64,000 nt of DNA from Nitrospirota bacterium (GCA_049325335.1 JBMOMC010000006.1:126666-190665); one strand, 5' to 3'. Positions 28,229 to 50,034 are shown, counted from the first letter of the stretch. Numbers and translations are program-made. The notes: generated by a model not told the origin, from the letters alone.

Positions 28229-28464
28229 GAACCCGTTCAGGAAAGGGCCATCTGCTGCGTTGGCGCTGCGCTTGCTTCGCCAAGCGAGCGGAACTGGCCA
28301 TTGCCAGCGCCGTAAATCGGCGCAGTGCGCTTTCCGCTCCTCACGTACGCAGCCAGTACGCTCCGGTGCGGTCACAGGCGGCTTCGCACGCCGTGCAAAT
28401 ATTATACGGGCCGACGCTGTCGGCCCTGTTCCGCCTTGCATCTGTCCCTTTCCTGAATGGGTTC
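28229..28464 (+). repeat. Structured repeat copy A (long variant)
   Basis: Terminal IR GAACCCGTTCAGGAAAGGG / CCCTTTCCTGAATGGGTTC. Core blocks CCATCTGCTGCGTT, CTCACGTACG..CAGTACGCTCCG and GCCTTGCATCTG. Confidence 0.85.
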
Positions 28465-28490
28465 AACTGGCGGGTTACTCGGACACGCTC

Positions 28491-29852
28491 ATGACCGACG
28501 CGACGTTCGACATGATCGTGGAGACGTTCCGGAAGTTCCTGCGCCGGGGCGCGATCACGCATTTGTCCAACATGGCCGGCAAGATGCGGCCCGCGGACCT
28601 GGCCCAGGTGATCCGTCATCTCGGCACGGTCCAGGAGCGGCGCACGGTGTTCGAACTCCTGCGCGACATGAAGGCCCGGGCCGCAGTGGTCAGCGAGAGC
28701 GAACCCGAAGTGATCGGCGAATTGCTACTCGACATGCCGCCCCACGATGTAGTGGTGGTCTTGCGCGAACTGGCCTCCGACGACGTGGCCGACATTCTGG
28801 GCAATATGCCCGAGGAAAAGGCGCAGGAAATCCTGCACCTGATGAAGGCCGATGAGTCGAGCGAGGTCAAGGACCTCTTGCAATACCCGGAGGAGACCGC
28901 GGGCGGCATCATGACCACCGACTTCGTGTCGTTGTACGAGGACACGACGGTCAAGGACGCGATCGCGCACCTGCAAGAGACCTCGGCCAAACAAATGGTG
29001 TTCTACCTGTACGTGACCGACCGCGGGGGCCGGCTGGTGGGCGTGGTGTCGTTGCGGCAACTGCTCGTGGTGTCGCCGCTGACACCGCTCAAAAAAATCA
29101 TGACCACGGACGTGATCAGCGTAGCGACCGACGTGGATCAGGAGGAGGTCTCCAAACTGGTCGCCAAGTACAACATCCTGGCGATTCCGGTGGTGGATAA
29201 GGATCACGTCTTGGTGGGGATCATCACCGTGGACGACGTGGTGGACGTGATCCGCGAAGAAGCGACCGAAGATATCTTGAAGCTGGCCGGGGCGAGCGAT
29301 GCCGACATGCTGCAACTCTCCAGTATCCGTGCCGCGCGGATGCGCATGCCGTGGTTGTTGACCAGTTTGGTAGGCGGCATAATCACCGGCGTGTTTCTCT
29401 GGATCTTTCGCCCCGCGATCCAACACGTGATCGCGCTGGCCAGTTTCATCCCGGTCATCACCGCGATGGGCGGCAACGTGGGACTCCAGACCTCCACGTT
29501 GGTGGTGCGTGGATTGGCCACGGGGCGCATCGAGTCCGCGGAGATTCGCGCCGTGTTCCTCAAAGAGTTGACCGTGGGGCTCATGATGGGGGCCTTGTGC
29601 GGAGTGATCGTGGGCGTGGTGGCTCAACTGTGGCACGGACCGACTATGCTGGGAATCGTGGTGGGCGTGTCCATGTTCTCAGCCATTACGGTCGCCGCGC
29701 TCATGGGGACCCTAATGCCCATCTTCCTGCGGCGGGCCGGATTCGATCCTGCGATTTCCTCGGGCCCGTTCGTCACCGCGGCCAACGACATCACGGGGCT
29801 GGTTATGTACTTGGGGTTGGCGACGTTGTTGTTGGAACACCTTCTGACCTAG
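28491..29852 (+). CDS. mgtE: Magnesium transporter MgtE
   Basis: TAGGIMT, CBS pair, GGNVGLQ, DPAISSGPFVT and NDITG. Confidence 0.96.
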   Translation: MTDATFDMIVETFRKFLRRGAITHLSNMAGKMRPADLAQVIRHLGTVQERRTVFELLRDMKARAAVVSESEPEVIGELLLDMPPHDVVVVLRELASDDVADILGNMPEEKAQEILHLMKADESSEVKDLLQYPEETAGGIMTTDFVSLYEDTTVKDAIAHLQETSAKQMVFYLYVTDRGGRLVGVVSLRQLLVVSPLTPLKKIMTTDVISVATDVDQEEVSKLVAKYNILAIPVVDKDHVLVGIITVDDVVDVIREEATEDILKLAGASDADMLQLSSIRAARMRMPWLLTSLVGGIITGVFLWIFRPAIQHVIALASFIPVITAMGGNVGLQTSTLVVRGLATGRIESAEIRAVFLKELTVGLMMGALCGVIVGVVAQLWHGPTMLGIVVGVSMFSAITVAALMGTLMPIFLRRAGFDPAISSGPFVTAANDITGLVMYLGLATLLLEHLLT

Positions 29853-29978
29853 GAGCCTGTCCATGAAAGGCCATCTGCGGCGTTGTCGGTCGACCTTGCG
29901 TGCTCACGTACGACCCAGTACGCTCCGCGCGCAAGGTTCGCCCTCCGCCTTGCGTCTGGCCTTCCCTGAACAGGCTCC
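29852..29978 (+). repeat. Structured repeat copy B
   Basis: Terminal IR GGAGCCTGTCCATGAAAGGCCA / TGGCCTTCCCTGAACAGGCTCC; same three core blocks. Confidence 0.85.
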
Positions 29979-30012
29979 AACTGGGCTCATTCGGATAGAC
30001 TCCTGACCCGGC

Positions 30013-30828
30013 ATGTGGCTCGACAGTCAGGCCATCGTGTTGGCGGGCCAGAAACTCGGCGAATCCGACACCGTGGTGACGCTGCTGACCTTGGAGCGCG
30101 GGTTGCTCAAGGGCGTGGCCAAGGGCGCGCGGCGGATGAAGAGCCGGTTTGGCGGCGCGATTCAGCCGTTCACCTACGGACAGGCCGTGCTGTTCGAGCG
30201 CCGTGCCACGGGGCTGCGCTCGCTCAACCATTTTGATCCGATCCATTCGTTCCAGCGCCTGCGTGAGGAGTTCGACCGGTTGAGCGACGCGGCGGTCCTG
30301 GCCAACGCGGCGCGACGCCTGCTTCCGGAAGACCAACCAGCCCCCGACGCGTTCGCGGTGCTGCTCAAGGCGCTCCGATCGCTGGAAGCCGGGCGCGACC
30401 GGGACGGGGGCGTGTTGTGTTGGGCGTTGTTGTCGTTGCTGCAAGCCGCCGGGTACCAACCGAGGGTGGATCGCTGTTTGGCTGGACGCCACGGCCCACG
30501 GTCCGCAACGGTCTCCGGCCGGTGGCTGTTCGTGCCCCATGTGGGCGGCGCGGTGTGCCCGTCCTGCGGGCTGGATGCGGTGTCAGGCCCGACCGGCCCG
30601 GCCACCGCGTTTGCCATGACGCCGGGCGCGCACGCGCTCTTGCGCCAGGCCCTTCGGATGCCGCCCGCGCTGCGGGCCAGGCTATCGGCCGGGCACGCCG
30701 TTGTTCGGGAGGTCAGGGTCCTGCTCGAAGCCTGTATTGCCGAACGCGGACGACGCCTGGTGAAACGCCCGGTGCCGGATCGTTCGGCGGTTCCGCCGGT
30801 GAATGTCCGGAAGCCCCGCCACGTCTAA
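30013..30828 (+). CDS. recO: DNA repair protein RecO
   Basis: AIVL..LGESD, VAKGARRMKSRFGG and Zn-binding remnants (RC..CPSC). Confidence 0.9.
   Translation: MWLDSQAIVLAGQKLGESDTVVTLLTLERGLLKGVAKGARRMKSRFGGAIQPFTYGQAVLFERRATGLRSLNHFDPIHSFQRLREEFDRLSDAAVLANAARRLLPEDQPAPDAFAVLLKALRSLEAGRDRDGGVLCWALLSLLQAAGYQPRVDRCLAGRHGPRSATVSGRWLFVPHVGGAVCPSCGLDAVSGPTGPATAFAMTPGAHALLRQALRMPPALRARLSAGHAVVREVRVLLEACIAERGRRLVKRPVPDRSAVPPVNVRKPRHV
30800..30828 (+). promoter_or_regulatory. Putative ECF-sigma autoregulatory promoter
   Basis: TGAATGT-N16-GTCTAA; same TGAAT-N17-CGTCT motif as at 32509. Confidence 0.6.
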
Positions 30829-30853
30829 TGTCGCGACGGAGATGAGGACGGTG

Positions 30854-31459
30854 ATGAACGCGGCCTCGTCGAGCCCGCCGGTGGTCGATGACGACGGTCA
30901 GTGGGTCGCCAAGGCGCAACGCGGGGACGAGCACGCGTTCGGGGAGCTGGTAATCCGGTATCGGACCCGCATGTACCAGGTGGCCTACGGCATGGTCAAT
31001 CACCACGAGACCGCGATGGATCTCGCGCAGGAGGGGTTTCTGCGCGCGTACCAGCATCTGGCCGCGTTCCGTGGCGAGGCCAAGTTCTCGACGTGGCTGC
31101 GGCGGATCGTCACCAACGTGTGTTTGGATTACGTGCGGCGGGCCGAACACCGCACCGCGACCGCGTCGTACGACGAAACACGGGCCGAAGACGACGATCC
31201 CGACGGGGTGAGTTTGGCTGGCGCGTTGGATCCGCCGGACGCGAGGGTCACGCGCCGCGAACTCGGGCTCGCGATTCTGGAGGCGATGCGGGCGTTGACG
31301 CCGGAGCAGCGGGCCGCGATTGTGTTGCGCGAAGTGGAGGAGATGTCGTACGAGGAGATCGCCAAGACCATGGACTGCGCCGTGGGCACCGTGATGTCGC
31401 GACTACACTATGCTCGCAAGCGGCTGCAGTCCCTGTTGCGGGAACACCATGAGCGGTGA
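30854..31459 (+). CDS. ECF RNA polymerase sigma factor (RpoE-like)
   Basis: GDEHAFGELV, DLAQEGF, FSTWLRRI and SYEEIA..GTVMSRLHYAR. Confidence 0.93.
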   Translation: MNAASSSPPVVDDDGQWVAKAQRGDEHAFGELVIRYRTRMYQVAYGMVNHHETAMDLAQEGFLRAYQHLAAFRGEAKFSTWLRRIVTNVCLDYVRRAEHRTATASYDETRAEDDDPDGVSLAGALDPPDARVTRRELGLAILEAMRALTPEQRAAIVLREVEEMSYEEIAKTMDCAVGTVMSRLHYARKRLQSLLREHHER

Positions 31460-31982
31460 CCACACGATGAGCGGTTCGGGCGAGTGCGACGCGATTGCCC
31501 CGTTGTTGAGCGCGTGGGTTGACGGCGAGGTATTCGGCCGCGAACGGGCGCTGGTTGAGCGCCACGTGGCGGGTTGCGCGCGTTGCCGAACCGTGGCGGG
31601 CGACTACCGCGTGATCGGCGCGACATTGTCCGTCGCGACCCATCGCGCCGCGGCGCGCGACCTGTCCGCGATCGCGTGGCCCCCGATTCCGGCGAGCGCG
31701 CCGATTCGCGTCGAGCCCGCCTTGACACCCCGGCGGCGCCTCCTCTATGATGTCGCGCGCTGGTTCAATCCCTGGCCGGTCTTTGCGGGCGCGGCCGCGA
31801 TGGTGGCGTTGATCGTGGGCATCGGCCTGTGGCGGCCCTCGCTTCCCGAGGCGTTGGTGGAAATCGAGCGCCTCGACGCGGCAGGGCCGGTGATGGTGCT
31901 GACCGGCGGCGACGGCCGCACCACGATCATTTGGTTAGTTGATCCCGAAGAAACCCCGCAGCCAGAGGCAGCCCCGATATGA
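31449..31982 (+). CDS. Zinc-binding (ZAS) transmembrane anti-sigma factor
   Basis: C..LLSAWVDGE..HVAGCARC (HxxxCxxC) and one TM helix. Confidence 0.85.
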   Translation: MSGDHTMSGSGECDAIAPLLSAWVDGEVFGRERALVERHVAGCARCRTVAGDYRVIGATLSVATHRAAARDLSAIAWPPIPASAPIRVEPALTPRRRLLYDVARWFNPWPVFAGAAAMVALIVGIGLWRPSLPEALVEIERLDAAGPVMVLTGGDGRTTIIWLVDPEETPQPEAAPI

Positions 31983-32428
31983 CACGTACGATACTCGTCG
32001 CCATATGGATCGTCGTCGCCGGCTCGCTGAGCCTTGCCGTCAGCGGCTGGGCCGCGGATCAGCCAGTGAAATTGACGGTGCAGGTCGTTCAGGCGTCGAA
32101 TCAAGGCGCAACCGTTGATCCCGCGTTGGCCAAGATCCGCGCGCAGTTGTCTTCGTTGAAATTCAGCAGTTACCGGCTCCTTGAAACCCACCCCTTGTCC
32201 ACCACGGTCGGCGCCAAACACGCGGTGGCGCTGCCGGGCGGACGCACCATGGATCTTTATCCATACGGCGTTTCCGGCGGGAGTTTGGAAGTGCTCGTCA
32301 CCATTACGGACGGCGCCAAACGCATCCTCGACACCACGGTCAGGCTCCCCAACAACGGCACCATCGTGGTGGGCGGACCGTCGCATGGCGACGGCGTGTT
32401 GATCGTCGCGCTCTCCGGCTCGTTCTAG
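31979..32428 (+). CDS. Secreted hypothetical protein, coupled to the anti-sigma
   Basis: Signal peptide; ATGA overlap with the anti-sigma; beta-rich. Confidence 0.75.
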   Translation: MTRTILVAIWIVVAGSLSLAVSGWAADQPVKLTVQVVQASNQGATVDPALAKIRAQLSSLKFSSYRLLETHPLSTTVGAKHAVALPGGRTMDLYPYGVSGGSLEVLVTITDGAKRILDTTVRLPNNGTIVVGGPSHGDGVLIVALSGSF

Positions 32429-32508
32429 CTCCAGCCGTACGCCACTCCCCGTGCGGGCGCTCGCGGCGTCTTGCAACCCGCCTCACCAGCTACCCCCCAG
32501 TCCGGCAT

Positions 32509-32537
32509 TGAATAATCGATCGGCCACCGTCGTCTGA
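32509..32537 (+). promoter_or_regulatory. Putative ECF-sigma promoter
   Basis: TGAATAA-N16-GTCTGA, 35 nt upstream of ATG 32573. Confidence 0.6.
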
Positions 32538-32572
32538 TTGGCCGTAGACCGACACGCGTAAGGAGGGGTGCC

Positions 32573-33340
32573 ATGGTACGAACACTGCTGTGGGGAATGA
32601 TCGTCGGCGTCGCGATCTGGGGTGCGGGACTGAACACGGTATTCGCGCACGATGAGGCGTGGGAGGACCGCTGGGATGAGGCGTCGGATGTGGAGGCCGC
32701 TCCGGACTTGGATCGGTTGTCGGCGTACGGGGAGTGGGTGTGGGAGCCCGCGCACGGCCGCGTATGGCGGCCGTATGTGGAGGCGGATTGGCGGCCGTAT
32801 TGGCGCGGCCACTGGAGCCGGCGCAACGAGTGGGTCTGGGTCTCGGCCGATCCCTGGGGCAATGCGCCGTTTCATTACGGGGAGTGGGCGTGGTCCCTTC
32901 GGTTCGGGTGGGTGTGGATTCCCGGCACGGTGTGGTCGCCCGCGCGGGTCACGTGGATCGTGGACGGACCGGTCATCGCCTGGGCGCCGGCCGGCCTGCA
33001 CATCACGATAGGATCCGATCCCAGATTTTGGGTGTATGCGGACATCGACCACTTCAACCGGCACATCGTGCGTCCGCATCGTCTGCCCCCGGCGTACCGG
33101 CACGTGCACCGCGGCGCGGTGATCCGGGACGTTGACCGCGTGGTAGCGCCGCATCGCCCGCCGAAACGCACGTTCCGGAACGAACGTTCGCGGGAGCGCA
33201 CGCACATGGTCAGCGACGAACGCCGCGTCAGTCCTCCGCGAGACCACCGTCCGAACCGCCGGTTCACCGTCGAGTCGCCCCGCGAACCAAACCGGGGCGC
33301 GGGCGTAGGACGAGGATTCGACCGGCGCGACGCCCGGTAA
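32573..33340 (+). CDS. Secreted Trp-rich repeat protein (DUF6600/YXWGXW-like)
   Basis: Signal peptide; YGEW, WRPY..G.W, PFHYG.W and WSPA.V.W; AGGAGG RBS. Confidence 0.8.
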   Translation: MVRTLLWGMIVGVAIWGAGLNTVFAHDEAWEDRWDEASDVEAAPDLDRLSAYGEWVWEPAHGRVWRPYVEADWRPYWRGHWSRRNEWVWVSADPWGNAPFHYGEWAWSLRFGWVWIPGTVWSPARVTWIVDGPVIAWAPAGLHITIGSDPRFWVYADIDHFNRHIVRPHRLPPAYRHVHRGAVIRDVDRVVAPHRPPKRTFRNERSRERTHMVSDERRVSPPRDHRPNRRFTVESPREPNRGAGVGRGFDRRDAR

Positions 33341-33517
33341 ATGAATCTGCATCTCACCCGAACGTGCTTGTTATGAGTTCCCCGCCTTGAGTCGGTACTC
33401 GTCGAATGCACGATCCGTGAGTTCCAGGTTCCAGATCGTGCGGGCTCAGGGTGCGGCGTCAACCTGGGATAGATGGGCAAGGGTGTTGCGCGATGAGTTG
33501 TCAGCGGAGCGGTGCGT

Positions 33518-35623
33518 TTATTCGGTTGCGGCGATCTCGCGGGCGCGTTGCTGGACCCAGGAGCGGGCTGCGGCCTGGGCCGGCGTGGCCAAGTCGAGGA
33601 ACCGTCGGTAGTGGTTCAGCGCCTCGGCTCGCCGGCCGACCGCGTCGAGCAGGCGGGCGACTTGGTAATGGCCTTCCGGGACGTTCGGGGCCAGGCGGAG
33701 CGCGGCCTCGAAGAGCGTGATCGCGGCGGCCTGCTCCCCGCGATCAAGGGAGAGCTTCGCGAGCGCGATGTGGGCGTCCACGTGTTCGGGATTGTGTTGG
33801 ATCGTGGTCTGGTACGCGGCCATTGCCTCGTCGATTCGTCCGAGGCGTTGCAAGGTTTGTCCCATCCCGTAGGTGGCTTGTGGTAAACGCGGATCGAGCG
33901 CGATCGCCCGCTGGAACTCCGCGATCGCGTCGTGATCCCGGCCTTGCTGTTGATGCACCGCGCCCAGATTGTTGTGCGACTCGGCGTCATCGGGATCGAG
34001 GCGGATGGCATCCTGGTATTCACGTCGGGCCTCGTCCAGGCGCCCCAGTCGCTGGTAGGTGAGGCCGAGGTGATAGGCGTCCTGCGCGTCCGTGGGTTTG
34101 AGCGCGCGAGCACGCTGGAACGCGGCGAGCGCTCCGTGCAGGTCTCCTCGGGCGAGCATCGCGCTGCCGAGGTTGCCTTGGGCGTCGTGGAAATCGGGAT
34201 TGGCGTCGGTCGCCGCCTTCCACGCCGCATACGCGTGGTCGGCGTCTCCGCGATCGTTATAGGCCACGCCGAGGCGGGTGAGTGCGCGCGGATTCCTGGG
34301 CGCCTTGGCCACGGTGTCCGACCAGAGGGAGAACTCCGTGGCCCACACGCGGTTGCGCTCGATCGTCCAACCGGTCCAGAGCAGGGTGAGGAGGGCGCCG
34401 ACGAGGACCGGGAGATACCGCTCGGGCCCGTGACGTCTCCAAAGACGAGCTCCCGCGAGCGCAAGCAGCAATGCGAGGCCCATCGACGGCAGGTAGAGCC
34501 GGTGTTCAAAAACCAAATCGAGCGGGATGAGACTCGACTCGATGGCAAGGTTGAGGAAGAACCATAACACGCCGAACGCCGGGAGGGGGAACCGGCGAAT
34601 GCGGGAGACCGCCCAGCCGATCCCCCCAAGGATTCCCAGCCAGGCCGCCAACGTGGCGGGCGGGTCGAGCCAGTCCCTGGAAATGGAGAACAGATAATCG
34701 AAATTCAGTCGCGAGGGGTGTGGCCACACGAGGAGGGTCAGATAATGGGCGATCACCCTCCCCTCGGTCAGGAGATGTTCGCGAAATGTGAACAATTGGA
34801 TGTTGGACCGGTGCGCGGTGAGCTGCGTCCAGAACGACCCCGTGACGTCGCCCCGCGCGGCCAAGACAGCCACCGCCGCGACGGGGACGGACAGCACCGC
34901 GAGCCACCGCAGCATGGCCAGCCCGGTGCGACGATCCGGCGGACCGAAGAAGCAGATTTCGGCGAGTACCACCGCGACCGGCAACGTCGCGGCGATCTCC
35001 TTGCTTCCCAGCGCCAGTGCGCCCGCTACGAGGCCCGCGATCCACCAGCGCGCGCGGCTCCATCCGGCGGTGAGACGTCCTTTGAGATACGCGGTCAACG
35101 CGAGCACGTAAAAGAGCGCGGCCAGGCTCGTCATCCGTTGGACAACGTAGGCGACCGCCTGGGTCTGGACGGGGTGGACGGCCCAGAGCAACGCGGCGCC
35201 CAGGGCGACGGGCCCCCGAAGGCCGCCCGCGGCGTCTCGCGTGCGGGAGAGCCCGAGCGCGACGAACACGAACGCGTACAATGCCAGTCCTGCGGCCGCG
35301 TGGATTGCCACGTTCACGAGATGGTATCCGATGACGCGGGATTCGCCCCAGTAATAGTTGAGCGCGAAAGTCAGGCTCGCCACGGGCCGGCGGTGCCACA
35401 GGGTTTGGCCCACGGCGGACGGGCTCAGGTCACGAAGCTGCAGCGCCGGGTCGTCCCTGAACGTCAGGTCGTCGAGGTGGAACTCTCCGTGCAGGCTGTT
35501 TGTATATGCGATGATCACGAATGCCGTGATCGCCAGGGCAGACGCCAGGTGCCACCGACGCGATGTTACCGCGAATGCGTTCGGTGTGTGCGGGGGAACC
35601 GGGCGGGGACGCGGACGAACCAT
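33518..35623 (-). CDS. TMTC-like GT-C glycosyltransferase with C-terminal TPR repeats
   Basis: FHLDD, YHLVNVAIH, HPVQTQAV..QR, SKE, EHRLYLPS and RNRVW; multiple TPRs. Confidence 0.85.
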   Translation of the reverse strand: MVRPRPRPVPPHTPNAFAVTSRRWHLASALAITAFVIIAYTNSLHGEFHLDDLTFRDDPALQLRDLSPSAVGQTLWHRRPVASLTFALNYYWGESRVIGYHLVNVAIHAAAGLALYAFVFVALGLSRTRDAAGGLRGPVALGAALLWAVHPVQTQAVAYVVQRMTSLAALFYVLALTAYLKGRLTAGWSRARWWIAGLVAGALALGSKEIAATLPVAVVLAEICFFGPPDRRTGLAMLRWLAVLSVPVAAVAVLAARGDVTGSFWTQLTAHRSNIQLFTFREHLLTEGRVIAHYLTLLVWPHPSRLNFDYLFSISRDWLDPPATLAAWLGILGGIGWAVSRIRRFPLPAFGVLWFFLNLAIESSLIPLDLVFEHRLYLPSMGLALLLALAGARLWRRHGPERYLPVLVGALLTLLWTGWTIERNRVWATEFSLWSDTVAKAPRNPRALTRLGVAYNDRGDADHAYAAWKAATDANPDFHDAQGNLGSAMLARGDLHGALAAFQRARALKPTDAQDAYHLGLTYQRLGRLDEARREYQDAIRLDPDDAESHNNLGAVHQQQGRDHDAIAEFQRAIALDPRLPQATYGMGQTLQRLGRIDEAMAAYQTTIQHNPEHVDAHIALAKLSLDRGEQAAAITLFEAALRLAPNVPEGHYQVARLLDAVGRRAEALNHYRRFLDLATPAQAAARSWVQQRAREIAATE

Positions 35624-36101: not shown

Positions 36102-36110
36102 AAACGCTGC

Positions 36111-37196: not shown

Positions 37197-37199
37197 GAG

Positions 37200-38588: not shown

Positions 38589-38725
38589 ACATGAACTCCG
38601 CTGTAGTCTGGATGTGAACGACAGAGTGCCCATCGTAGCCGAGGGTTTGGGGGGAAGTCAACGGGAAAAGCCCTGCTACTAGGCTTAAAGTCCCGGTGAA
38701 ATCAGGGAAATCTAGGCCGTTCGAC

Positions 38726-38882
38726 CTAGCCCGCTGCTGAAAAAGTCGACCGGTTGGCAGGCTGCTCAAAAGGTTCCGGCTGCAAGGCCGCAGGGAGGAG
38801 GAAACCGGAGCGTACTGTGTCGTACGTGAGGATTTCCGACGACCGAGAACGCCGCAGACGGACTTTTTCAGCAGCCTGCTAG
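38726..38882 (-). repeat. Structured repeat copy C, flanked by CTAG
   Basis: Minus strand CAGGCTGCTGAAAAAGT-core-CTTTTGAGCAGCCTG plus an extra outer IR. CTAG at 38726 and 38879. Confidence 0.88.
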
Positions 38883-40848: not shown

Positions 40849-40874
40849 GCGTTTCCAGGACCCAACGTGCGCCC

Positions 40875-42331: not shown

Positions 42332-42931
42332 ATGGTCACGAACCGAACCAAGGCGGTTGCGCGGACCGGCGACGCGCTGATCGTGGTGGACGTACAGAAC
42401 GATTTTTTGCCGGGCGGCGCGCTCGCGGTGCCGAAGGGTGACGCGGTGGCGCCCGCCCTGAACCGGTACCTCGCGGCATGGCGCGCTCGCGGGGCGCCGG
42501 TGTTTGCCACCCGCGATTGGCACCCCGCCGACCACTGCTCGTTTCAGGAGCGCGGGGGGCCGTGGCCCGTACACTGCGTGGCCGGGACACGGGGCGCGGA
42601 GTTCGCGCCGGGCCTCGACTTGTCCAACGACGCGGTCGTGGCGTCGAAGGGCGACTCGCGGGATCGCGACGCGTATTCGGGATTCGACGGCACGGATTTG
42701 CACGAGCGGCTGCAGCGCGCCGGAATCCGGCGCGTGTTCGTGGGCGGGTTGGCCACGGACTACTGCGTGCTCGCCACGGTGAACGACGCGGTCCGGTTGG
42801 GGTATGCGGTGTACGTGTTGGTCGACGCGATTGCGGCCGTGAACGCGAATCCCGGCGACGGACAACGGGCTGAAGCGGAGATGGCGCGGGCGGGCGCGGC
42901 GACCGTCCGGTACGAGCAACTCGCGTCATGA
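42332..42931 (+). CDS. pncA: Nicotinamidase
   Basis: VDVQNDF, TRDWH, WPVHCV, YSGF and ATDYCV. Confidence 0.93.
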   Translation: MVTNRTKAVARTGDALIVVDVQNDFLPGGALAVPKGDAVAPALNRYLAAWRARGAPVFATRDWHPADHCSFQERGGPWPVHCVAGTRGAEFAPGLDLSNDAVVASKGDSRDRDAYSGFDGTDLHERLQRAGIRRVFVGGLATDYCVLATVNDAVRLGYAVYVLVDAIAAVNANPGDGQRAEAEMARAGAATVRYEQLAS

Positions 42932-44286
42932 CTCCGAGGCCCAGCGTCCTCCTCACCGATCTGTACCAGTTGTCCATGCTCGACGTGTATCGGCGTTGCG
43001 GCATGGCACAGACCGCGGTGTTCGAATTTTTCGTGCGCAAGCTCCCGTCCTGCCGGAGATTCCTGGTGGCCGCGGGGCTTGAACAACTGATCGAGTATCT
43101 GGAGTCGTTGCGCTTTACGCCCGAGGATGTGGAGTGGGTCCGCGCGAGCGGGCGGTTTGATCCCGGGTTCGCGGACTATCTCCGGGACGTTCGTTTTACC
43201 GGGGACGTGCACGCGATGCCCGAGGGCACGGTGTGTTTTCCCGACGAACCGCTGGTGCGCGTGACTGCGCCCATGCCGCAGGCCCAGTTGGTGGAGACGC
43301 GGTTGATCAATCTGATTCAATTCCAGACGTTGCTCGCGTCTAAAGCCGCGCGGTTCGCGCTGGTCGCGCCGGACGCGTTCTTGGTGGATTTCGGGTTGCG
43401 CCGCGCGCACGGCGCCGAGGCCGGGTTGCTGGGCGCGCGCGCGGTGTTCCTGGCGGGATTCTCCGGCACCGCCACGGTATCGGCCGACGCCGCGTTTGGC
43501 GTGCCCGTGTATGGCACCATGGCGCACTCCTTCATTCAGGCGCACGACGACGAGGCCCAGGCGTTCGCGAACTTTTCGCGGTATCAGTCCCGCAACGTGG
43601 TGTTGTTGCTGGACACGTACGATACCGAGGCCGCGGCACGCAAGGTCGTCGCGCTCGCGCCCACGCTCACGCGCGAAGGCATCACGATCAAGGGCGTCCG
43701 GTTGGACAGCGGCGATCTGGGCGATCATGCGCGTAAGGTCCGCGCGATTCTGGACGCGGGCGGGTTGACGAACGCGACCATCTTCGCGAGCGGCAATCTC
43801 GACGAATACGCGGTGCGGGACCTGGTGACGAGCGGCGCGCCAATCAACGGGTTCGGCGTGGGTTCGCGGCTGATGACGTCATCGGACGCGCCGTACCTGG
43901 ATTGCGCGTACAAACTGCAGGAATACGCGCGGCGCGCGCGGCGCAAACGGTCCGAGGGCAAGGCCACGTGGCCCGGTCGTAAACAGGTCTACCGCCGGTA
44001 CGACCTGGACGGGCGGATGATCGAAGATCTGGTGACGCTGGACGGCGATCTGCAGGACGGCGAGCCGTTGCTCGCGCCCGTGATGCGCGGCGGCAAACGC
44101 CTGTCGCCGCCGCGTCCGCTCAGCGAGATCCGCGACTACACCCGCGAGCAGTTGGCGACATTGCCGGATGCGTTGCGGACCTTGGACGGTGACGCGAGTT
44201 ACCCGGTGCGCGTCGCGCCCGCAGTCCTCGCACTAGCCGACGCAGTTGACCGGGTCGAAGGTGTGTCCCCTCCTGCCCGCCGTTGA
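42928..44286 (+). CDS. pncB: Nicotinate phosphoribosyltransferase
   Basis: LLTDLYQLSM, DFGLRRAH, GTMAHS and VRLDSGD. Confidence 0.95.
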   Translation: MTPRPSVLLTDLYQLSMLDVYRRCGMAQTAVFEFFVRKLPSCRRFLVAAGLEQLIEYLESLRFTPEDVEWVRASGRFDPGFADYLRDVRFTGDVHAMPEGTVCFPDEPLVRVTAPMPQAQLVETRLINLIQFQTLLASKAARFALVAPDAFLVDFGLRRAHGAEAGLLGARAVFLAGFSGTATVSADAAFGVPVYGTMAHSFIQAHDDEAQAFANFSRYQSRNVVLLLDTYDTEAAARKVVALAPTLTREGITIKGVRLDSGDLGDHARKVRAILDAGGLTNATIFASGNLDEYAVRDLVTSGAPINGFGVGSRLMTSSDAPYLDCAYKLQEYARRARRKRSEGKATWPGRKQVYRRYDLDGRMIEDLVTLDGDLQDGEPLLAPVMRGGKRLSPPRPLSEIRDYTREQLATLPDALRTLDGDASYPVRVAPAVLALADAVDRVEGVSPPARR

Positions 44287-44352
44287 CGGAGGAAGGGATA
44301 GGGATGTGGTGATCGGGCGGGGGCGCCATTCATCAACACAGGGGAGGGGACG

Positions 44353-44781
44353 ATGCGGAAGATCGGGAATTTCGCAGGGGTGGTCATGTTTGCAGTGGCG
44401 GCCGGCGTGGCGCTCATGGGGGCGCGAAGTCCCGCGGCCGGCGACGAGCCCCATCAGACCGTGGACGTGACTATCCGCGACTCCACGTTTAAGGTCGAAA
44501 CGCGGGTGCTGCGTCTGCAGGCGCCGATTCGGATCGTGTTGCGCAACACGGACGCCATCGAACACGGCTTTACCTCCCCGGGACTGGCCGACGTGGACGC
44601 GCGCGTTGAGGCCCACGGAGTCGTGACCTACGGGCGCGGCATCAAAGGCCTGTATGTGGGGCCCGGCGAGGAGGCCTCGATCATCTTCGAACCCAACCAT
44701 GCGGGCGCGCTCAAATTCAGTTGCGACCTGCATCCGCAAATGAAGGGCGAGTTGGCGGTGTTGACCATCAACGCGGCGTAG
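44353..44781 (+). CDS. Secreted cupredoxin-domain protein
   Basis: Signal peptide; type-1 Cu ligands in EHGF and FSCDLHPQM. Confidence 0.85.
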   Translation: MRKIGNFAGVVMFAVAAGVALMGARSPAAGDEPHQTVDVTIRDSTFKVETRVLRLQAPIRIVLRNTDAIEHGFTSPGLADVDARVEAHGVVTYGRGIKGLYVGPGEEASIIFEPNHAGALKFSCDLHPQMKGELAVLTINAA

Positions 44782-44855
44782 CGAGTCGCGCGAAGCGCGG
44801 CAGCGGTTGTTCCGGCCGTTGGTTGACGCGGGTGAACCCCGTAGGGCGTCGGCGA

Positions 44856-45305
44856 TTAGGGTGTTTCGTGAGTTGCGGCCGGTGCGGGGCGCTCCACGCC
44901 CGCGCCGTAGCGGTACACGAGATCGCCGCCGAAGTAGCCGGTCAATGCGATCAGTACTACGCCGATGACTCCGATCGCGAGGAACACGGAGTTCGGGATT
45001 GAGCGTTTTCGCTGCAACCACCGGATGACGATGAGCAGGGCGAACACGGCCAGTGCGGCGAAGGCCAGCGACTCGTGCGTTTCAATCGCGCCTTCCGGTA
45101 CGCCTCCCTCCTCCGCGGCTTCTTCCGCTAGGATTCCGGTGGCCGCGGCGACCAGCCCTCCCATGAAGCCGAAGCCCAACAACCAGGTCGCGGCCTCACG
45201 GAGTGCGTCGCGTTTCAAGACCAGTTCGAGCGCTCCAAGTACGATCGCGGTGATCAACAATGCGATCGGAAAATGTACGATGATCGGGTGCAAGGGGTGC
45301 GTCAT
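44856..45305 (-). CDS. DUF2231 membrane protein
   Basis: HPIIVHFPIAL, AAATG, H and TGYFGGDLVY..G.GV. Confidence 0.85.
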   Translation of the reverse strand: MTHPLHPIIVHFPIALLITAIVLGALELVLKRDALREAATWLLGFGFMGGLVAAATGILAEEAAEEGGVPEGAIETHESLAFAALAVFALLIVIRWLQRKRSIPNSVFLAIGVIGVVLIALTGYFGGDLVYRYGAGVERPAPAATHETP

Positions 45306-45318
45306 AAGCCGTCCTGTC

Positions 45319-46779
45319 TCAGTCTGAAAATCCGTATTCGCGCCACCGCCGCGTGACGCGTTCGATGATATCGGGATCCATGATAATCGGTTTGCCCCAT
45401 TCGCGCGAAGTCTCTGGCGGAATCTTGGTGGTGGCGTCGATGCCCATTTTGGATCCGAGCTCCGGGAGCGGGGACGCGAAGTCCAGGTAGTCGATCGGGG
45501 TGTGGTCGATGATCGTGACGTCGCGCCGGGGGTCTACGTTAGTGGACAGGGCCCAGATCACGTCTTCCCACTTGCGCACGTCGATAGTGGGATCCACCAC
45601 GATCACGAATTTCACATAGAGAAACTGCTTCAAGAAACCCCACAGTCCCATCATCACGCGTTTGGCGTGGCCGGGAAATTCCTTCTTCATGGCGATCACC
45701 GCGACGCGATAGGAGAGCGCCTCCATCGGCAGGTGAAAGTCCACGATCTCCGAGAACGTGGTCTTAATCATGGGCAGGAAGATACGGTTGAGCGCGAGCG
45801 CCACCACCGCGTCCTCGCGCGGCGGGCGGCCCGTGACCGTGGACATGTAGATGGGATTGCGGCGGTGCGTGATCGCCGTGATTCGCAACACGGGAAACGA
45901 CTCGATCGGGTTGTAGTACCCGGTGTGATCCCCGTGCGGCCCCTCGTCGCACATCTCGCCCGGCAAGACCTCGCCCTCGATGACGATCTCGGCCGAGGCC
46001 GGCACTTCGAGGTCGATGGTTTTGCAGCGGACCAATTCGATGTTCTTGCGCCGCAGCAGACCCGCGAAGTGGTACTCGCCGATCTGTTCGGGCACGGGCG
46101 TGACCGCCGCGATGGTCGTGCCCGGGTCGCATCCGAGCACGGCCGCCACCGGCATGGGTTTGCCCTCGGCCATCCACTCGCGGTAGTGGTGCGCGCCGCC
46201 GTGGTGCTTGAGCCACCGCATCGCGGCGCGGTCTTTGCCGAGCACCTGCATGCGGTAGATACCCGCGTTGTATTTCCCGCCGTGCGGCGACTTGGTCACC
46301 ACCAACGGCCAGTTGATCTGCGGGCCGCCGTCGTCGGGCCAGCAAAACATAATTGGCAAGAGTCCCAGATCCACCTGCTCACCGGTGAGCACCACCTCCT
46401 GGCACGCGGCCCGGCTCACGGTTTTTGGCGCCAGGTGCAGAATGCGGCCGTAGAACGGAAGGTGTTTGATCGCGTCCACGAACCCCTTGGGCGGCTCGGG
46501 GTGTTGAAGGAACGCGAGAAACTTGCCGATTTCCTCGAGTCCGGCTTCGTCCGTCTCCAAACCCATGGCCACGCGTTTGACCGTGCCGAACAGGTTGGCC
46601 AGCAGCGGAATCGACGAGCCTTTCACGCGTTCGAATAACACGGCGGGTCCGCCGGTCGCGAGCAGGCGGTTCAGAATTTCCGTGACCTCGAGGCGGGGAT
46701 CCACTTCGGCCTTGACGCGGATCAGTTCGCCGGACTTTTCCAGGGCCTCGATGAATTCGCGAAGATCGGTATAGGGCAT
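45319..46779 (-). CDS. ubiD: UbiD-family prFMN-dependent decarboxylase
   Basis: YTDLREFI, NAGIYRMQ, EGPHGDHTGYY and DYLDFASP..GSKMGIDAT. Confidence 0.95.
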   Translation of the reverse strand: MPYTDLREFIEALEKSGELIRVKAEVDPRLEVTEILNRLLATGGPAVLFERVKGSSIPLLANLFGTVKRVAMGLETDEAGLEEIGKFLAFLQHPEPPKGFVDAIKHLPFYGRILHLAPKTVSRAACQEVVLTGEQVDLGLLPIMFCWPDDGGPQINWPLVVTKSPHGGKYNAGIYRMQVLGKDRAAMRWLKHHGGAHHYREWMAEGKPMPVAAVLGCDPGTTIAAVTPVPEQIGEYHFAGLLRRKNIELVRCKTIDLEVPASAEIVIEGEVLPGEMCDEGPHGDHTGYYNPIESFPVLRITAITHRRNPIYMSTVTGRPPREDAVVALALNRIFLPMIKTTFSEIVDFHLPMEALSYRVAVIAMKKEFPGHAKRVMMGLWGFLKQFLYVKFVIVVDPTIDVRKWEDVIWALSTNVDPRRDVTIIDHTPIDYLDFASPLPELGSKMGIDATTKIPPETSREWGKPIIMDPDIIERVTRRWREYGFSD

Positions 46780-46786
46780 GGGTCGG

Positions 46787-47707
46787 TTACCGAATCGATT
46801 GATCGAGGATGATGCCGCCGAGGATCAGCAACCCGATCCACGCGTGCGATCGAAATAGCGCGAAGACGGCGGGACGGTCAGGTCCTTGTCGTAGTCGCCA
46901 CGTCTGGTAGCTGAACGTGGCGGCCACCACGGCGACGGTCGCGACATATACGGACCCAAGCGGCACGAGCGCGCCGAGCGTGCCGAGGCCGATGACGGCG
47001 AGGCCGAACAGCGCGCCGACCCCGACCCACGCGTATCGGCCGAACAGGATCGCGGAGGAGCGCACGCCGATCCGCGCATCGTCGTCGCGGTCCATCATCG
47101 CGTACATCGTGTCGTAACCCGCGGCCCAGCACACCGTGGCCAGGAAGATGGCGATCGCGGGCGCGGCGATTTCGTTTCGAACCGCGGCCCACGCGAGCAC
47201 GGCGCCCCACCCGAACGCGACGCCCATCACGGCCTGGGGCATGGCGATCACGCGCTTCATCAGCGGATACACCGCGGCGAGCGCGAACCCGACGACGCTG
47301 AGGCCAATGGCCAGCGGATTCAGCGTGAGCGCGAGCAGCAGCGCCGCCACGGACAAGACCGCGCCCACGGCCAGCGCTTCCCCGGGCGCGAGCCGTCCCG
47401 ATGCCAGCGGACGGTCCTTGGTGCGTTCCACGCGGCCGTCAAACTTCCGATCGGCCAGATCATTGAGCACGCAACCCGCGCTGCGCATTACGAACGCGCC
47501 GACCACGAACACGGCAAGCAGTTGCCACGACGGCGCGCCGTCCGACGCGATGAACAGGGACCACAGCGTCGGAGCCATGAGCAGGAGGGTGCCGTACTGT
47601 TTAGGAAAACGAATCAGATCCGAAACCGCGATCAGTTTGGCGCGGAGCGCGGTTTCAGGCCGCGCGTTCCGCTGGACCGCGTGTACACCGGCGGCGTTGG
47701 TCGCCAT
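46787..47707 (-). CDS. ubiA: 4-hydroxybenzoate polyprenyltransferase
   Basis: MRSAGCVLNDLADRKFD..RT..RPL, YPLMKR and YDTMYAMMDRDDD. Confidence 0.93.
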   Translation of the reverse strand: MATNAAGVHAVQRNARPETALRAKLIAVSDLIRFPKQYGTLLLMAPTLWSLFIASDGAPSWQLLAVFVVGAFVMRSAGCVLNDLADRKFDGRVERTKDRPLASGRLAPGEALAVGAVLSVAALLLALTLNPLAIGLSVVGFALAAVYPLMKRVIAMPQAVMGVAFGWGAVLAWAAVRNEIAAPAIAIFLATVCWAAGYDTMYAMMDRDDDARIGVRSSAILFGRYAWVGVGALFGLAVIGLGTLGALVPLGSVYVATVAVVAATFSYQTWRLRQGPDRPAVFALFRSHAWIGLLILGGIILDQSIR

Positions 47708-47708
47708 C

Positions 47709-48269
47709 TCAATCCGCCAATCGAGGGGACAGGACCTCCACGATGGAGGCCGTGAGCGTGCGTTCGACCGCGAGCCGGTAGGTCCGGCACCAGAGCGCGG
47801 CGGAGGGACCCACGCCGAACGCGGCCGCCAACTCCGGGTCGTGCACGCGGCCGATGCGGAGCCCGTCGCGCAGGACCGCGCGGTCGGCGGTGTCGAACAA
47901 TCGGCCGAGCGGTTCAACGCCGCGACGGACTTCGATCGCCACCGAGGGGTTCAGCGATTCCATCGGCAAGACCGAGACCGCGTAGAGCAGGCGCTCCCCC
48001 GCGTGCGTCAACCACGCGTGACGCGAGACCGCGGTCTGTCGCGCCGACACGCCCAACCGGCGCGCGGTGTCGGCGTCGATCGGCTCCTCGCCTTGTCGAA
48101 CCAATTCGAGGTCGACCCGCCCCCCGCGCACGGCTTCAAGCGCGGTGGTCATGGACCCGTCGCACGTCAGCAACAGGCGGAGGACGGAAGAGACTTCAAC
48201 GGGATCGACTTCGGAGAGGAATTCCTCGTATGTTTTCCAAGCGATCGATGTCGCAGCTAAGACGATCAC
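47709..48269 (-). CDS. ubiC: Chorismate pyruvate-lyase family protein (UbiC/DUF98-like)
   Basis: LLLTCDGSMTTAL, LLYAVS, PLGRLF, WCR.YRL and IVEVL; sits upstream of ubiA. Confidence 0.75.
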   Translation of the reverse strand: MIVLAATSIAWKTYEEFLSEVDPVEVSSVLRLLLTCDGSMTTALEAVRGGRVDLELVRQGEEPIDADTARRLGVSARQTAVSRHAWLTHAGERLLYAVSVLPMESLNPSVAIEVRRGVEPLGRLFDTADRAVLRDGLRIGRVHDPELAAAFGVGPSAALWCRTYRLAVERTLTASIVEVLSPRLAD

Positions 48270-48276
48270 GCGCGGG

Positions 48277-48306
48277 ATCATACGTGAGCATTTTGAGGCG
48301 TGTCAA
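48277..48306 (-). promoter_or_regulatory. Sigma70 promoter of ubiC-ubiA-ubiD
   Basis: TTGACA-N18-TATGAT. Confidence 0.7.
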
Positions 48307-48393
48307 GACGACAACATCCGGTGCTGAACCGGAACATCGCCGCTTGCGGGTCTCGCAAGATTCTGCTACACCGAGAAGGCCAAGGAGAGCGTC

Positions 48394-49884
48394 ATGAGCG
48401 AACGGATCGCCAATTTGATCAACGGTCGATGGCAACCCGCGGCGTTGGGGCGGACGCTGGAGAGTCGCAACCCGGCGGACGCGGACGAGGTCGTCGCGAT
48501 CGCGCCGACGTCGGATGCGCGGGACGTGGACGAGGCCGTGGCCGCGGCGCGGGCCGCGTTTCCCGCGTGGCGTGCGGTGCCCGCGCCCAAGCGCGGCGAG
48601 GCGTTGTTCCGCGCGGCCGAACGGCTGGCGCGGGAGAAGGAGGCTCTGGCTCGGATCGTGACGCGCGAGATGGGCAAGGTGATCGCGGAAGCGCGGGGGG
48701 ACGTGCAGGAGGCCGTGGACATGGCTTACTACATGGCGGGCGAGGGGCGGCGTCTGTCCGGCGAAACCGTGCCGTCCGAACTGCCGAATAAGGACGCCAA
48801 GTCCGTGCGGGTACCGCTCGGGGTGTGCGGGTTGATCACACCCTGGAACTTTCCGGTGGCGATCCCGTCGTGGAAAATTCTGCCCGCGCTGGTGGCGGGC
48901 AATACCGTCGTCCTGAAGCCCTCGGAGCTCACGCCGTTGTGCGCGACGCGGTTCGTGCAAATTCTTCAGGACGCAGGGCTGCCGCCGGGCGTGTTGAATC
49001 TGGTCCACGGCGACGGCGAGTCCGCGGGTGAGGCCGTGGCGGGACACCGGGACGTGAGCGTGGTCTCGTTCACCGGGTCGTCGGTCGTGGGCGAGCGGAT
49101 CGAGGCCTTGTGCGGGCGGCTGCACCGGCCAGTGTGCACCGAGACCGGGGGCAAGAATCCGTTGATCGTGATGGATGACGCGGATTTGGATCTGGCCGTG
49201 GAGGGCGCGCTCTGGGGCGGGTTCGGCACCAGTGGTCAGCGCTGCACCGCGGCCAGCCGCGTGATCGTCCACGAGTCGGTGTACGACGCGTTCGTGGCGC
49301 GCTTCGTCAACGCCGCGAAGACCTTGCGCCTCGGGTCCGGGCTCGACCCCGCGACCCACGTGGGGCCCGTGATCAGCGCCGAGCAAAAACGGACGGTGCT
49401 GGAGTACATTGAGATCGGGAAAAAGGAGGGGGCCACGCTCCTGTGCGGCGGCCACGCGCCGACCGACGGACCGCTCGCCAAGGGTCACTTCATCGTGCCC
49501 ACCATCTTCGGCGACGTCACGCCCGGGATGCGGATCGCGCAGGAGGAGATTTTCGGTCCGGTGGTGTCGGTGCTCAAGGCCCGCGATCTGAGCCAGGCCG
49601 TCGAGATCGCCAACAATGTCGCGTACGGCCTCTCCGCCGCGATCTACAGCCGCGACGTCAATAAGACGGCCGTGGCTGAACGCGATCTAGACACGGGCAT
49701 CGTGTACGTGAACGCCTCGACCATCGGCGCGGAGATCCAGCTTCCGTTCGGTGGCACCAAACGCACGGGTCTGGGGCCGCGCGAAGCCGGGGGCCGCGGG
49801 GGCGCGCTGGAGTTGTACACGAAGTGGAAAGTGATCTACCGGGACTATTCGGGCAAGCTGCAGAAGGCGCAGATCGACGCGTGA
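48394..49884 (+). CDS. Aldehyde dehydrogenase family protein
   Basis: ITPWNFP, FTGS, ETGGKNP, GQRCTA and EEIFGPV. Confidence 0.95.
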
Positions 49885-50034
49885 CAGGCTGCTGAAAAAG
49901 TCCATCTGCGGCGTTCTCGGTCGTTGGAAATCCTCGCGTACGACTCAGTATGCTCCGGTTTCCTCCTCCCTGCGGCCTTGCATCTGGAACTTTTTGAGCA
50001 GTCTGCTGGCATCACTGTGTTTTTCAACGTCCTG
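49885..50034 (+). repeat. Structured repeat copy D
   Basis: CAGGCTGCTGAAAAAGT-core-CTTTTTGAGCAGTCTG plus outer IR GTTTTTCAACGTCCTG; near-identical to copy C. Confidence 0.88.

Follow-up and report, generated by a model that had tools for sequence, protein, structure and literature searches.

Four copies of a structured repeat lie in the window (the whole 64,000-nt stretch of Nitrospirota DNA analysed here), each beginning at the stop codon of an upstream gene. A sequence-only reading had placed these copies, always in the sense orientation, behind era, mgtE, a propeller gene and an aldehyde dehydrogenase gene. All four positions were confirmed, the orientation and the start at the stop codon hold throughout, and the upstream genes, when their families were checked, proved to encode an Era-type GTPase (copy A), MgtE (copy B), a Reg_prop propeller protein (copy C) and an aldehyde dehydrogenase (copy D). 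The three sequence blocks said to be common to the copies are present, with one to two changes per copy.

On the forward strand, copy A follows the TGA stop codon of the Era-type GTPase gene (28226..28228), which is the left copy of its target duplication. The long hairpin (28229..28464) is larger owing to additional arms that flank the tip on either side, and its apical core (28340..28365) reads CTCACGTACG..AGTACGCTCCG, with a longer loop. The tail (28465..28491) opens with AACTGG, leads into a third inverted repeat, GGACACGCTCA, and is followed by the right copy of the target, a second TGA (28492..28494). At the empty sites described below, this triplet is the era stop codon and overlaps the mgtE start; in the occupied allele the last A of the tail completes the mgtE ATG, and after the insertion of copy A the start of the next gene is also present again. 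Copy B, on the same strand, has its left junction at the mgtE stop codon TAG (29850..29852). It comprises a 127-nt long hairpin (29852..29978; -71.2 kcal/mol, z -9.1), whose apical core (29903..29927) matches the motif exactly, and a tail (29979..30003) that carries the third inverted repeat GGATAGACTCC. In the alignment with G002, a related genome that has the empty allele, the TGA directly after the tail (30004-30006) falls on the stop region of that allele.

Copy C lies on the reverse strand, its left junction at the TAG stop codon of the propeller gene (38879..38881). Its long hairpin (38758..38879; z -3.0) has type II ends, CAGGCTGCTGAAAAAG, and an apical core (38806..38830) that again matches the motif exactly; the tail (38726..38757) holds the third inverted repeat CTTTTTCAGCAGCGGGC and then the right TAG (38728-38726), which is inside a host CTAG. 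Copy D, on the forward strand, has its left junction at the aldehyde dehydrogenase stop codon TGA (49882..49884). A folded long hairpin (49885..50005; z -4.0), with an apical core (49933..49957) that differs from the motif by two changes, is followed by a tail (50006..50038) made up of a small hairpin, a T-run, the third inverted repeat to 50035 and the right TGA target copy (50036-50038). Several details of the sequence-only reading need adjusting in this light. Copies A and B really reach 28491 and 30003, about 25-30 nt beyond the ends first drawn, and the AACTGG noted after both is indeed there, as the start of the element tail. The third outer inverted repeat assigned to C and D exists, but it is not confined to them, as the tails of A and B carry one too. 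The CTAG flanking copy C is present and is the duplicated TA/TAG target. The element unit is an imperfect hairpin of about 121-128 nt plus a tail of about 25-30 nt that ends in a second terminal repeat.

A profile built from copies B, C and D (E<=1e-3) yielded about 77 merged elements in the 3.25-Mb Nitrospirota genome, and the core was matched 45 times with at most one mismatch. The simple copies, 45 in number, are 120-128 nt long. Across copies we find the near-invariant internal loops, highly variable ends and co-varying stems that had been described from four (96% paired; 16 of 30 pairs compensatory). The conserved, non-complementary loops are a tandem U.C/C.U, a UU bulge and a 3x4 loop below the tip; the first six pairs below the core co-vary in register; and optional hairpin modules sit at fixed positions. 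In several copies, REP-type palindromes (GTAGGGGCG...CGCCCCTAC) take the place of the tip. In the sister genome G001, the copies orthologous to B and D have had their central module exchanged as a whole block. Copies at fixed sites later swap their central module with other copies and, as these two sites indicate, part of the "covariation" is wholesale exchange of central modules.

The sequence-only reading had proposed a comparison with empty sites in relatives, which we carried out. The site of copy A is empty in G002, G003, G004 and G006, all of which lack the tail (28465..28491) as well. For copy B, the empty genomes are G002-G005, and a copy of a different subfamily occupies the same stop codon in G006; for copy C, they are G002-G004, and the stop of that gene bears a type-I copy in G005. 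For copy D, synteny is lost after the aldehyde dehydrogenase gene in G002-G006, and a precise empty site was not obtained. A further site (C1:233298) is empty in G004 and G005, bears another subfamily in the same orientation in G003, and bears an opposite-orientation copy in G001 and G002. The empty orthologous sites show that the element is mobile, and in the related genomes the same stop codons have been targeted independently. Insertion appears to be into a T-R(-R) target, mostly TA(G), with two or three bases duplicated. Left junctions are mostly TA|G, and the same triplet stands on both sides in 7 of the 9 copies that have a clear third repeat; many copies have neither a TA after the hairpin nor a recognisable third repeat. 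Copies A and D have TG/TGA in place of TA, with TGA on both sides. A 3-nt duplication would agree with A, D and the TAA cases, a 2-nt one with copy B and with the symmetry of the ends.

Insertion falls very often on the stop codon of a gene, and a stop is present again afterwards. The bias towards sense orientation and stop codons was borne out genome-wide, with gene calls from a crude codon-usage ORF picker: of 67 copies, 35 have an upstream stop on the same strand no more than 5 nt from their 5' (hairpin-side) end, compared with 5 of 67 for the 3' end and a chance expectation of 2.8-4.7%. The junction stop is TAG in 23 of these 35 copies, and TAG makes up 22% of all called stops. The link is weak in Desulforudis (6/29 at the 5' end; 0 at the 3' end, which is defined in only 8/29). 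For 120 cross-phylum loci, tests based on the outermost pair and short-flank ORFs gave 44/49 on the left and 40/49 on the right, and were too noisy to be informative.

In sequence, the invariant tip equals the core of the E. coli ERIC/IRU repeat, and also that of a second E. coli repeat family. When the window's core was made degenerate at two positions, the resulting pattern (GGAGCKTACN{4,6}GTAMGTGA) matched E. coli K-12 18 times and the control 0 times; 11 of the matches have a CTTAC/GTAAG stem and 7 a CGTAC/GTACG stem, as in this Nitrospirota family. A long sense ORF stops 48-66 nt before the core in 7 of the 18, compared with 1 of 18 on the other side, and the stop-facing end, relative to the core, is the same in E. 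coli and Nitrospirota. ERIC repeats have been in use for typing since 1991; we know of no transposase for them, nor of any account of what moves them or of why their core is conserved. The reviews consulted describe ERIC as a 127-bp MITE that has TIRs and a TSD, with TA at either terminus; at the 3' ends of genes it is co-transcribed, and its RNase E effects depend on orientation (PMC2229807, PMC3184786, PMC10969869). In those reviews it is named for enterobacteria and vibrios alone.

The resemblance to ERIC/IRU/RU-1 of Enterobacteriaceae and Vibrionaceae extends to overall form. Both are single long imperfect hairpins of about 125-127 nt with the same apical module (GAG, a 5-bp stem CKTAC/GTAMG, a loop, and TGA on one strand), and both lie at gene 3' ends with the same end toward the stop. 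The TA that ERIC has at its termini is seen in the Nitrospirota family at most left junctions, and copies A and D have TGA. In an alignment, short blocks outside the core are alike on both arms. In contrast, the terminal repeats are unrelated, the host phylum differs, the outer stems are much more variable in the Nitrospirota family, and this family alone has the extra tail of about 25 nt with a third repeat and the optional inserted modules. Descent shared with ERIC beyond the core lacks statistical support, because nhmmer profiles fail to join the two families there: a profile of 40 copies matched 0 of 11 classical ERIC copies and only 5 of the 18 E. coli loci (E 0.02-0.14, over the core alone), and an ERIC profile gave no matches in the Nitrospirota genome at E<=0.01. 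We consider it probable that the Nitrospirota family is a non-autonomous ERIC-type MITE, a new relative of a known kind of element.

We then asked how widely the core occurs. It was found in only 5 of 301 Nitrospirota genomes; G002 (98% complete) has 99 core copies. In at least six phyla the core sits at the tip of hairpins that otherwise differ, and it also occurs in Rhizobiales, Clostridia, Desulforudis, Syntrophales, Myxococcota, Bdellovibrionota and Betaproteobacteria, a patchy spread that is typical of mobile DNA. Viral contigs gave 0 exact core matches; literature searches returned nothing but unrelated primers for the core strings, and nothing relevant for a MITE at stop codons in Nitrospira.

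The sequence-only reading had taken the repeat for a candidate novel RNA motif or a non-autonomous element. A structured RNA selected by the host, serving as a 3'-UTR processing, stabilising or protein-binding module whose conserved loops would bind a universal RNA-binding factor and whose spread is incidental, would account for the sense orientation at stop codons in both the Nitrospirota genome and E. coli, for the non-complementary loops conserved among co-varying helices, and for optional hairpin modules at fixed positions. We nevertheless regard it as very unlikely. Close relatives have empty orthologous sites, as expected of a mobile element, the tip matches the core of an already described MITE family, ERIC/IRU (an outcome that the sequence-only reading had itself named as counting against its proposal), and the phylum carries the core in so few genomes. 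Rfam gave nothing relevant for the window at the gathering threshold or for the copies at E<=10, and no match on the element at 15 loci from other phyla. None of copies A, B, C and D has a terminator-like site; some type-II tails elsewhere have a small stem and T5. Selection on the sense RNA was not upheld either: on the union of both strands' structures, G.U- and A.C-type oppositions are equal (118 vs 121), and folding is no worse for the antisense alignment. The lack of a strand-specific wobble signal, together with the blockwise swapping of central modules, leaves RNA-level selection unsupported. A count on the sense structure (115 G.U vs 21 A.C) was rejected as biased by the way that structure was derived. 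Single-sequence MFE comparisons of 45 copies favoured the antisense strand in 35 and the sense strand in 9, with 1 tie, an advantage due to conserved pyrimidine mismatches being read as tandem G.A on the other strand; the strand test was dropped as evidence for either strand. The presence of the core atop stems of unrelated sequence in many phyla could instead mean that the tip is a tiny independent mobile cassette that lands in the loops of hairpins with no relation to one another, among them other MITEs, spacers and terminators, in which case a shared core would be uninformative on the common descent of the large hairpins. A Bacillus rRNA spacer and the interior of a permuted tmRNA gene do have the core on a stem of just 5-6 bp, only 5 of 29 Desulforudis elements having the same ends carry it, and a REP palindrome can replace it. 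Against this, E. coli ERIC and the Nitrospirota family have similar blocks outside the core too, and the pairs just beneath it co-vary in register, so we hold the cassette to be the least likely of the readings.

A third alternative concerns the mobiliser, which the sequence-only reading had left unidentified; our transposase search likewise gave no identifiable candidate with matching ends. The Nitrospirota genome has one IS630-type gene, whose ends are missing from the 1050-nt contig that carries it, and the IS630 ends of relatives (TA|GTGTAGTG.., TA|GTGTGCTGTCCC) have only TAG....CTGTCC in common with the type-I end. DDE_3 is present in G000 and G003 and was not found in G002, G004 and G005 (G002-G005 being incomplete MAGs) or in the complete Desulforudis genome, G041, where a search over a few kb likewise gave no gene flanked by the ends. 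Small contigs ending in the element's repeats were not found, nor was a DUF4096 partner. Contigs C26, C36, C21 and C34, with DDE_Tnp_1 or DDE_Tnp_4, were considered as the autonomous partner and rejected, as they do not match the element. The element could also be a single-strand DNA hairpin moved by an HUH tyrosine transposase, a giant analogue of REP/REPIN, and its ends would then vary because the enzyme recognises the fold, internal loops and tip instead. The near-invariant loops and tip beside greatly varying ends, the missing end-matched DDE transposon, the REP-type palindromes at the tip and the Y1_Tnp genes in all 11 carrier genomes tested, one of them about 400 nt from a Desulforudis copy, are in keeping with this. 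We find it quite improbable all the same. The element has a copy of the target bases on either side, a duplication that to our knowledge HUH elements do not make; site C1:233298 shows both orientations; the seven close copy pairs examined all surround housekeeping genes and none is REPtron-like; and only a single copy lies beside the Desulforudis Y1_Tnp gene. Of the 81 genomes of the class, 59 have Y1_Tnp, and most of these lack the element, so the co-occurrence is uninformative.

REP/REPIN elements, which are mobilised by RAYT (TnpA_REP), share with the Nitrospirota family a structure conserved over end sequence and abundant, intergenic copies, and REP palindromes are nested in the tip of some copies. 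REPs carry a GTAG foot and, as far as we know, make no target duplication. In the part of the source used here, they are 20-40 nt long and flank their RAYT gene (PMC6006769). The Nitrospirota family, in contrast, is not of that length, does not flank a RAYT gene, lacks the foot and duplicates its target. Among IS630-linked MITEs, RUP of Streptococcus pneumoniae, described as a hairpin MITE of about 107 bp with TA insertion and proposed trans-mobilisation (PMC2229807), can also be compared: both are hairpin MITEs, and TA is the commonest target in the Nitrospirota family too. RUP ends match IS630-Spn1, whereas the Nitrospirota family has no resident IS whose ends match, and several genomes that carry the element yielded no IS630-type gene.

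Returning to the ERIC-type MITE, we propose that a transposase acting in trans would move the element. The simplest candidate would be a TA-duplicating DDE enzyme of the IS630/Tc1 type, which most carriers may now lack, or which may be unassembled there. What the mobiliser or a host factor recognises would be the conserved tip and the internal loops. An element placed after a stop codon and ahead of the next gene is presumably co-transcribed and would fold as part of the 3' UTR. The orientation bias would then mirror which strand's hairpin is tolerated or useful there, as has been reported for ERIC in Yersinia, with ribosome-dependent unmasking of an RNase E site. For annotators, the caution is that the family's abundant, strongly co-varying 3'-UTR hairpins are mobile DNA and not new riboregulators.

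The findings are, then, that one core tops otherwise different hairpins in many phyla, that its distribution is patchy and often high-copy, and that E. coli and a Nitrospirota genome have the same one-orientation preference for stop codons. They make of the old descriptive puzzle of ERIC a question for comparative genomics, namely which gene family tracks the core. A broader and rather unlikely extension would give the ERIC core the role of recognition module for a machinery, present in many phyla, by which hairpins are homed to stop codons and always set the same way round with respect to the translated strand, with ERIC, Nitrospirota, rhizobial, Brucella, clostridial and other hairpins forming one "stop-codon-homing" superfamily. 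If it were true, the superfamily's mobiliser could be found by phylogenetic profiling. Loci in Brucella, Ochrobactrum and Mesorhizobium, which may be the published palindromic intergenic repeats Bru-RS1/Bru-RS2 (Brucella) or RIME/Sm-repeats (rhizobia), have the identical core at the hairpin tip; their hairpins are about 125-150 nt long and start at stop codons.

The four repeats of the window, copies A to D, lie where the sequence-only reading had placed them, each in the sense orientation behind the stop codon of a gene whose family we checked. Copy A follows the TGA at 28226-28228 (+) of an Era-type GTPase gene, copy B the TAG at 29850-29852 (+) of an MgtE gene, copy C the TAG at 38881-38879 (-) of a gene for a Reg_prop propeller protein, and copy D the TGA at 49882-49884 (+) of an aldehyde dehydrogenase gene. 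Copy B folds as one long hairpin (-71.2 kcal/mol, z -9.1); copies C and D also form a single long hairpin, more weakly than B, and copy A carries extra arms. Terminator-like sites were found at none of the four. About 70 nt downstream of copy C is a promoter-like site at 38632-38661 (-), with TTGACT, an 18-nt spacer and TACGAT, the surroundings of which are kept in relatives having an empty copy-C site. The sole Rfam match within the window is a tRNA gene at 7466-7538 (-); Rfam gave no match to the element itself.

The host genome (3.25 Mb in 45 contigs, ~63% G+C), for which a motif scan gave Nitrospirota MAGs as relatives, contains 77 merged elements when searched with a profile built from copies B, C and D (E<=1e-3), and 62 near-full profile matches were inspected by eye. 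The unit opens with a left terminal repeat of type I (GGAGCCTGTCC...) or type II (CAGGCTGCTGAAAAAG), of which diverged variants are numerous. There follow a helix formed by the blocks CCATCTGCGGCGTTG and CCGCCTTGCATCTGG, whose pairing is interrupted by a tandem U.C/C.U mismatch and a UU bulge, an inner stem of variable sequence, a 3x4 internal loop (TCA/CTCC), a 5-bp CGTAC/GTACG stem with a variable loop, and the mirror arm. In many copies the unit ends in a tail of 25-30 nt that closes with a third copy of the terminal repeat. The AACTGG reported to come after copies A and B is indeed present, but it is the start of this tail and so lies inside the element; that the tail is part of the insert follows from the empty sites in relatives.

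Several modules vary this plan. About 20 copies, with both end types among them, carry a 46-nt insert (GACCCACC...GGAAGTCCCCGAAGGGGGC) exactly between CCTTGC and ATCTGG of the right arm, as at C1:504106 (-) and C2:219650 (+) (contig:position); it occurs in none of the four window copies and is also found in the Manganitrophus loci L011 and L068. The module is one of two things: a mini-element nested at a fixed target, or an optional domain that is ancestral. In several copies a REP-like palindrome (GTAGGGGCG...CGCCCCTAC) takes the place of the tip, and a REP-type palindrome (GTAGGGGCGTA...TACGCCCCTAC) replaces the apical core at C45:113571 (-), C2:8205 (+), C43:251125 (+), C11:127600 (+) and others in the host genome, where the latter palindrome also stands free after C43:101637. 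Host copies without the third repeat, for example C2:59457, C1:233298, C2:265693 and C2:408254, have a GC-rich hairpin of 6-9 bp and unique sequence that begins at the CC closing the long hairpin. At C2:59457 the empty allele of the sister genome G001 already has the 3' half of this small hairpin (GGCGGTTA), so the 5' half resembles flank sequence copied in inverted form.

Is the repeat mobile? A comparison with relatives, a check proposed along with the sequence-only reading, turned up empty sites for copies A, B and C and for the copy at C1:233298. Among the relatives placed (G005 left out), the copy-A site is empty in G002, G003, G004 and G006 (...GGGTACACGTGACCGACG...), and in this allele the start of mgtE overlaps the stop of era. 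The filled site of the window reads ...GCGTGA, the element, then TGACCGACG..., which means that the stop and a start codon were both preserved after insertion; in G001, at 87% identity, the site is filled. The copy-B site is empty in G002-G005, and at this stop G006 has a copy that belongs to a different subfamily. The copy-C site is empty in G002-G004, and G005 has a type-I copy at the stop codon of the same gene. The C1:233298 site is empty in G004 and G005, is occupied by another subfamily in the same orientation in G003, and holds copies in the opposite orientation in G001 and G002. Such differing copies at orthologous sites indicate that individual stop codons have been struck repeatedly and independently. 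Between genera, element copies are 90-98% identical and flanking genes 70-77%.

Copies also swap interiors, presumably by ectopic conversion. At the B and D sites (29852-30003 and 49885-50035) the G001 orthologues (L138 and L272) agree with the window in ends, tail and flanks, yet their central module is that of a different subfamily. As to the target, the left junction reads T-R-R followed by GAGCC or CAGGC, and an identical triplet lies beyond the right end in seven of nine copies with a clear third repeat. The flanking triplets are TGA/TGA for copy A, TAG/TAG for C, TGA/TGA for D and TAG/TGA for B; a 2-nt duplication (TA/TG) agrees with copy B and with the symmetry of the ends, a 3-nt duplication with A, D and the TAA cases.

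The bias toward stop codons holds genome-wide and is non-random in orientation, as the window had suggested. Against 2518 ORFs called crudely by ourselves from codon usage (83% of the genome), 35 of the 67 copies with defined ends have an upstream same-strand stop no more than 5 nt from the hairpin-side end, and in 5/67 the other end is that near the stop of a converging gene (strict contrast, p 1e-6). In about nine further copies a converging stop lies 16-37 nt past the hairpin, where the end of a decayed tail would be expected; with these added, the fairer contrast is about 35 vs 14 (p 0.004). If insertion into non-coding T-R or TA sites were random, 2.8-4.7% of copies would lie at stop codons (p about 1e-36). 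The 35 junction stops comprise 23 TAG, 9 TGA and 3 TAA; TAG makes up 22% of all called stops (546/2518).

The co-varying stems described for the window copies were borne out in 40 simple copies, for which RNAalifold gave one hairpin of 30 pairs, 16 with compensatory changes; 96.2% of cells pair, vs 81.6% in shuffles and 29-41% with slid partners, and the covariation score is 0.407 vs 0.152, although these numbers overstate the independent events because the copies are paralogous and their interiors block-swapped. In a cross-phylum set of 114 distinct sequences, anchored on the exact core and gapless, 55 have C:G and 50 have G:C as the first pair below the core (Watson-Crick in 108/114), the second position is a U.U or U.G opposition throughout, and pairs 3-6 are Watson-Crick in 70-90 of the 114, with three pair types at each. 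The strand tests, by folds and wobble counts, single out neither sense nor antisense: single-sequence folds favour antisense in 35/45 copies, the alignment fold gives antisense -31.7 vs sense -24.6 kcal/mol, and the union of both strands' structures has 118 G.U-type vs 121 A.C-type oppositions. The proposal had been a novel RNA motif or a non-autonomous element. The empty sites uphold the element, and we reject the reading as a new riboregulator: the repeat is an ERIC-type hairpin, mobile but non-autonomous.

The other strand of the core resembles the central repeat of ERIC. With two positions degenerate, the window-core pattern has 18 matches in E. coli K-12 and 0 in the control. Eleven have the CTTAC/GTAAG stem of classical ERIC, and seven the CGTAC/GTACG stem of the window family; of these, two belong to ERIC-like copies and five to a second repeat family (AGGCTATTTTATTTG...; exact core, NC_000913.3 near 192695, 1007742, 2543705, 2689583 and 2746364). 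This second family, which may be the 103-bp RU-3 of Delihas, has the core flanks GCTCGAAATCC and GGTTTCTCCGCGC, both of which also occur in a betaproteobacterial MAG (L045). ERIC and the window family are of the same length and have short blocks in the arms in common. A long sense ORF ends 48-66 nt before the core in 7/18 K-12 copies, vs 1/18 on the other side, so it is the same end of the element that faces the stop codon in both phyla; stop-codon-adjacent ERICs reportedly favour one orientation (De Gregorio et al. 2005). A profile search of the window family against E. coli reached 5/18 loci at E 0.02-0.14, in the core region only, and none of the 11 classical ERIC copies; the reverse search, with an ERIC profile in the host genome, gave no match at E<=0.01. 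A profile link confined to the core counts against full ERIC membership. In reviews, ERIC is a MITE of 127 bp that has TIRs, duplicates its target and carries TA at each terminus; it is co-transcribed at the 3' ends of genes, acts in an orientation-dependent way via an RNase E site, and is recorded from Enterobacteriaceae and Vibrionaceae alone (PMC2229807, PMC3184786, PMC10969869). The texts searched gave no description of the ERIC link, of the core's cross-phylum spread or of an orientation rule common with E. coli; other papers or supplements may bear on these.

A search for a transposase or HUH gene bearing the element's ends identified no mobiliser in the host genome, its relatives or Desulforudis. 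The sole IS630-type gene of the host occupies a 1050-nt contig without IS ends, and the ends of that gene's relatives bear little likeness to those of the element; searches for DDE_3 came up empty in G002, G004, G005 and the complete Desulforudis genome (G041). Stand-alone transposase contigs of 1.0-1.4 kb each in the host (C35, C26, C36, C21 and C34; IS630-type DDE_3, DDE_Tnp_1, DDE_Tnp_4) are probably collapsed multi-copy IS with unassembled ends, and those other than the IS630-type contig gave no match to the element. Y1_Tnp genes occur in all carriers tested, yet also in 59/81 genomes of the class, and REPtron-like flanking of a gene by element copies was not seen. The Desulforudis genome has 29 end-bearing elements, 17 with a TA flank and only 5 with the core. 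At locus L200 (G041:C1:608285-611620), one of its seven Y1_Tnp matches lies ~400 nt from a core-bearing copy, divergently; the chance expectation is, on a rough estimate, ~0.07.

Among GTDB species representatives the exact core (21 specified bases) has at least 120 loci; it is absent from 2.9 million viral contigs. Among the loci listed, 49 are from outside Nitrospirota: Mesorhizobium, Brucella/Ochrobactrum and other Alphaproteobacteria, Betaproteobacteria, Clostridia, Desulforudis and other Bacillota, Bacillus, Syntrophales, Myxococcota and Bdellovibrionota. In these listed loci the core is always at the tip of a hairpin with other arms, and many of the hairpins begin at a stop codon. Within Nitrospirota the core (<=1 mismatch) is present in only 5 of 301 sampled genomes, with 45, 78, 99 and 56 copies in carriers of this genus and 1 elsewhere. 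In an alphaproteobacterial MAG (L012) the core occurs twice within a permuted alpha-tmRNA gene, whose RF01849 match is broken by ~200 nt, and in two Bacillus loci (L021 and L041) it sits with a mere short stem in the spacer directly upstream of 23S rRNA.
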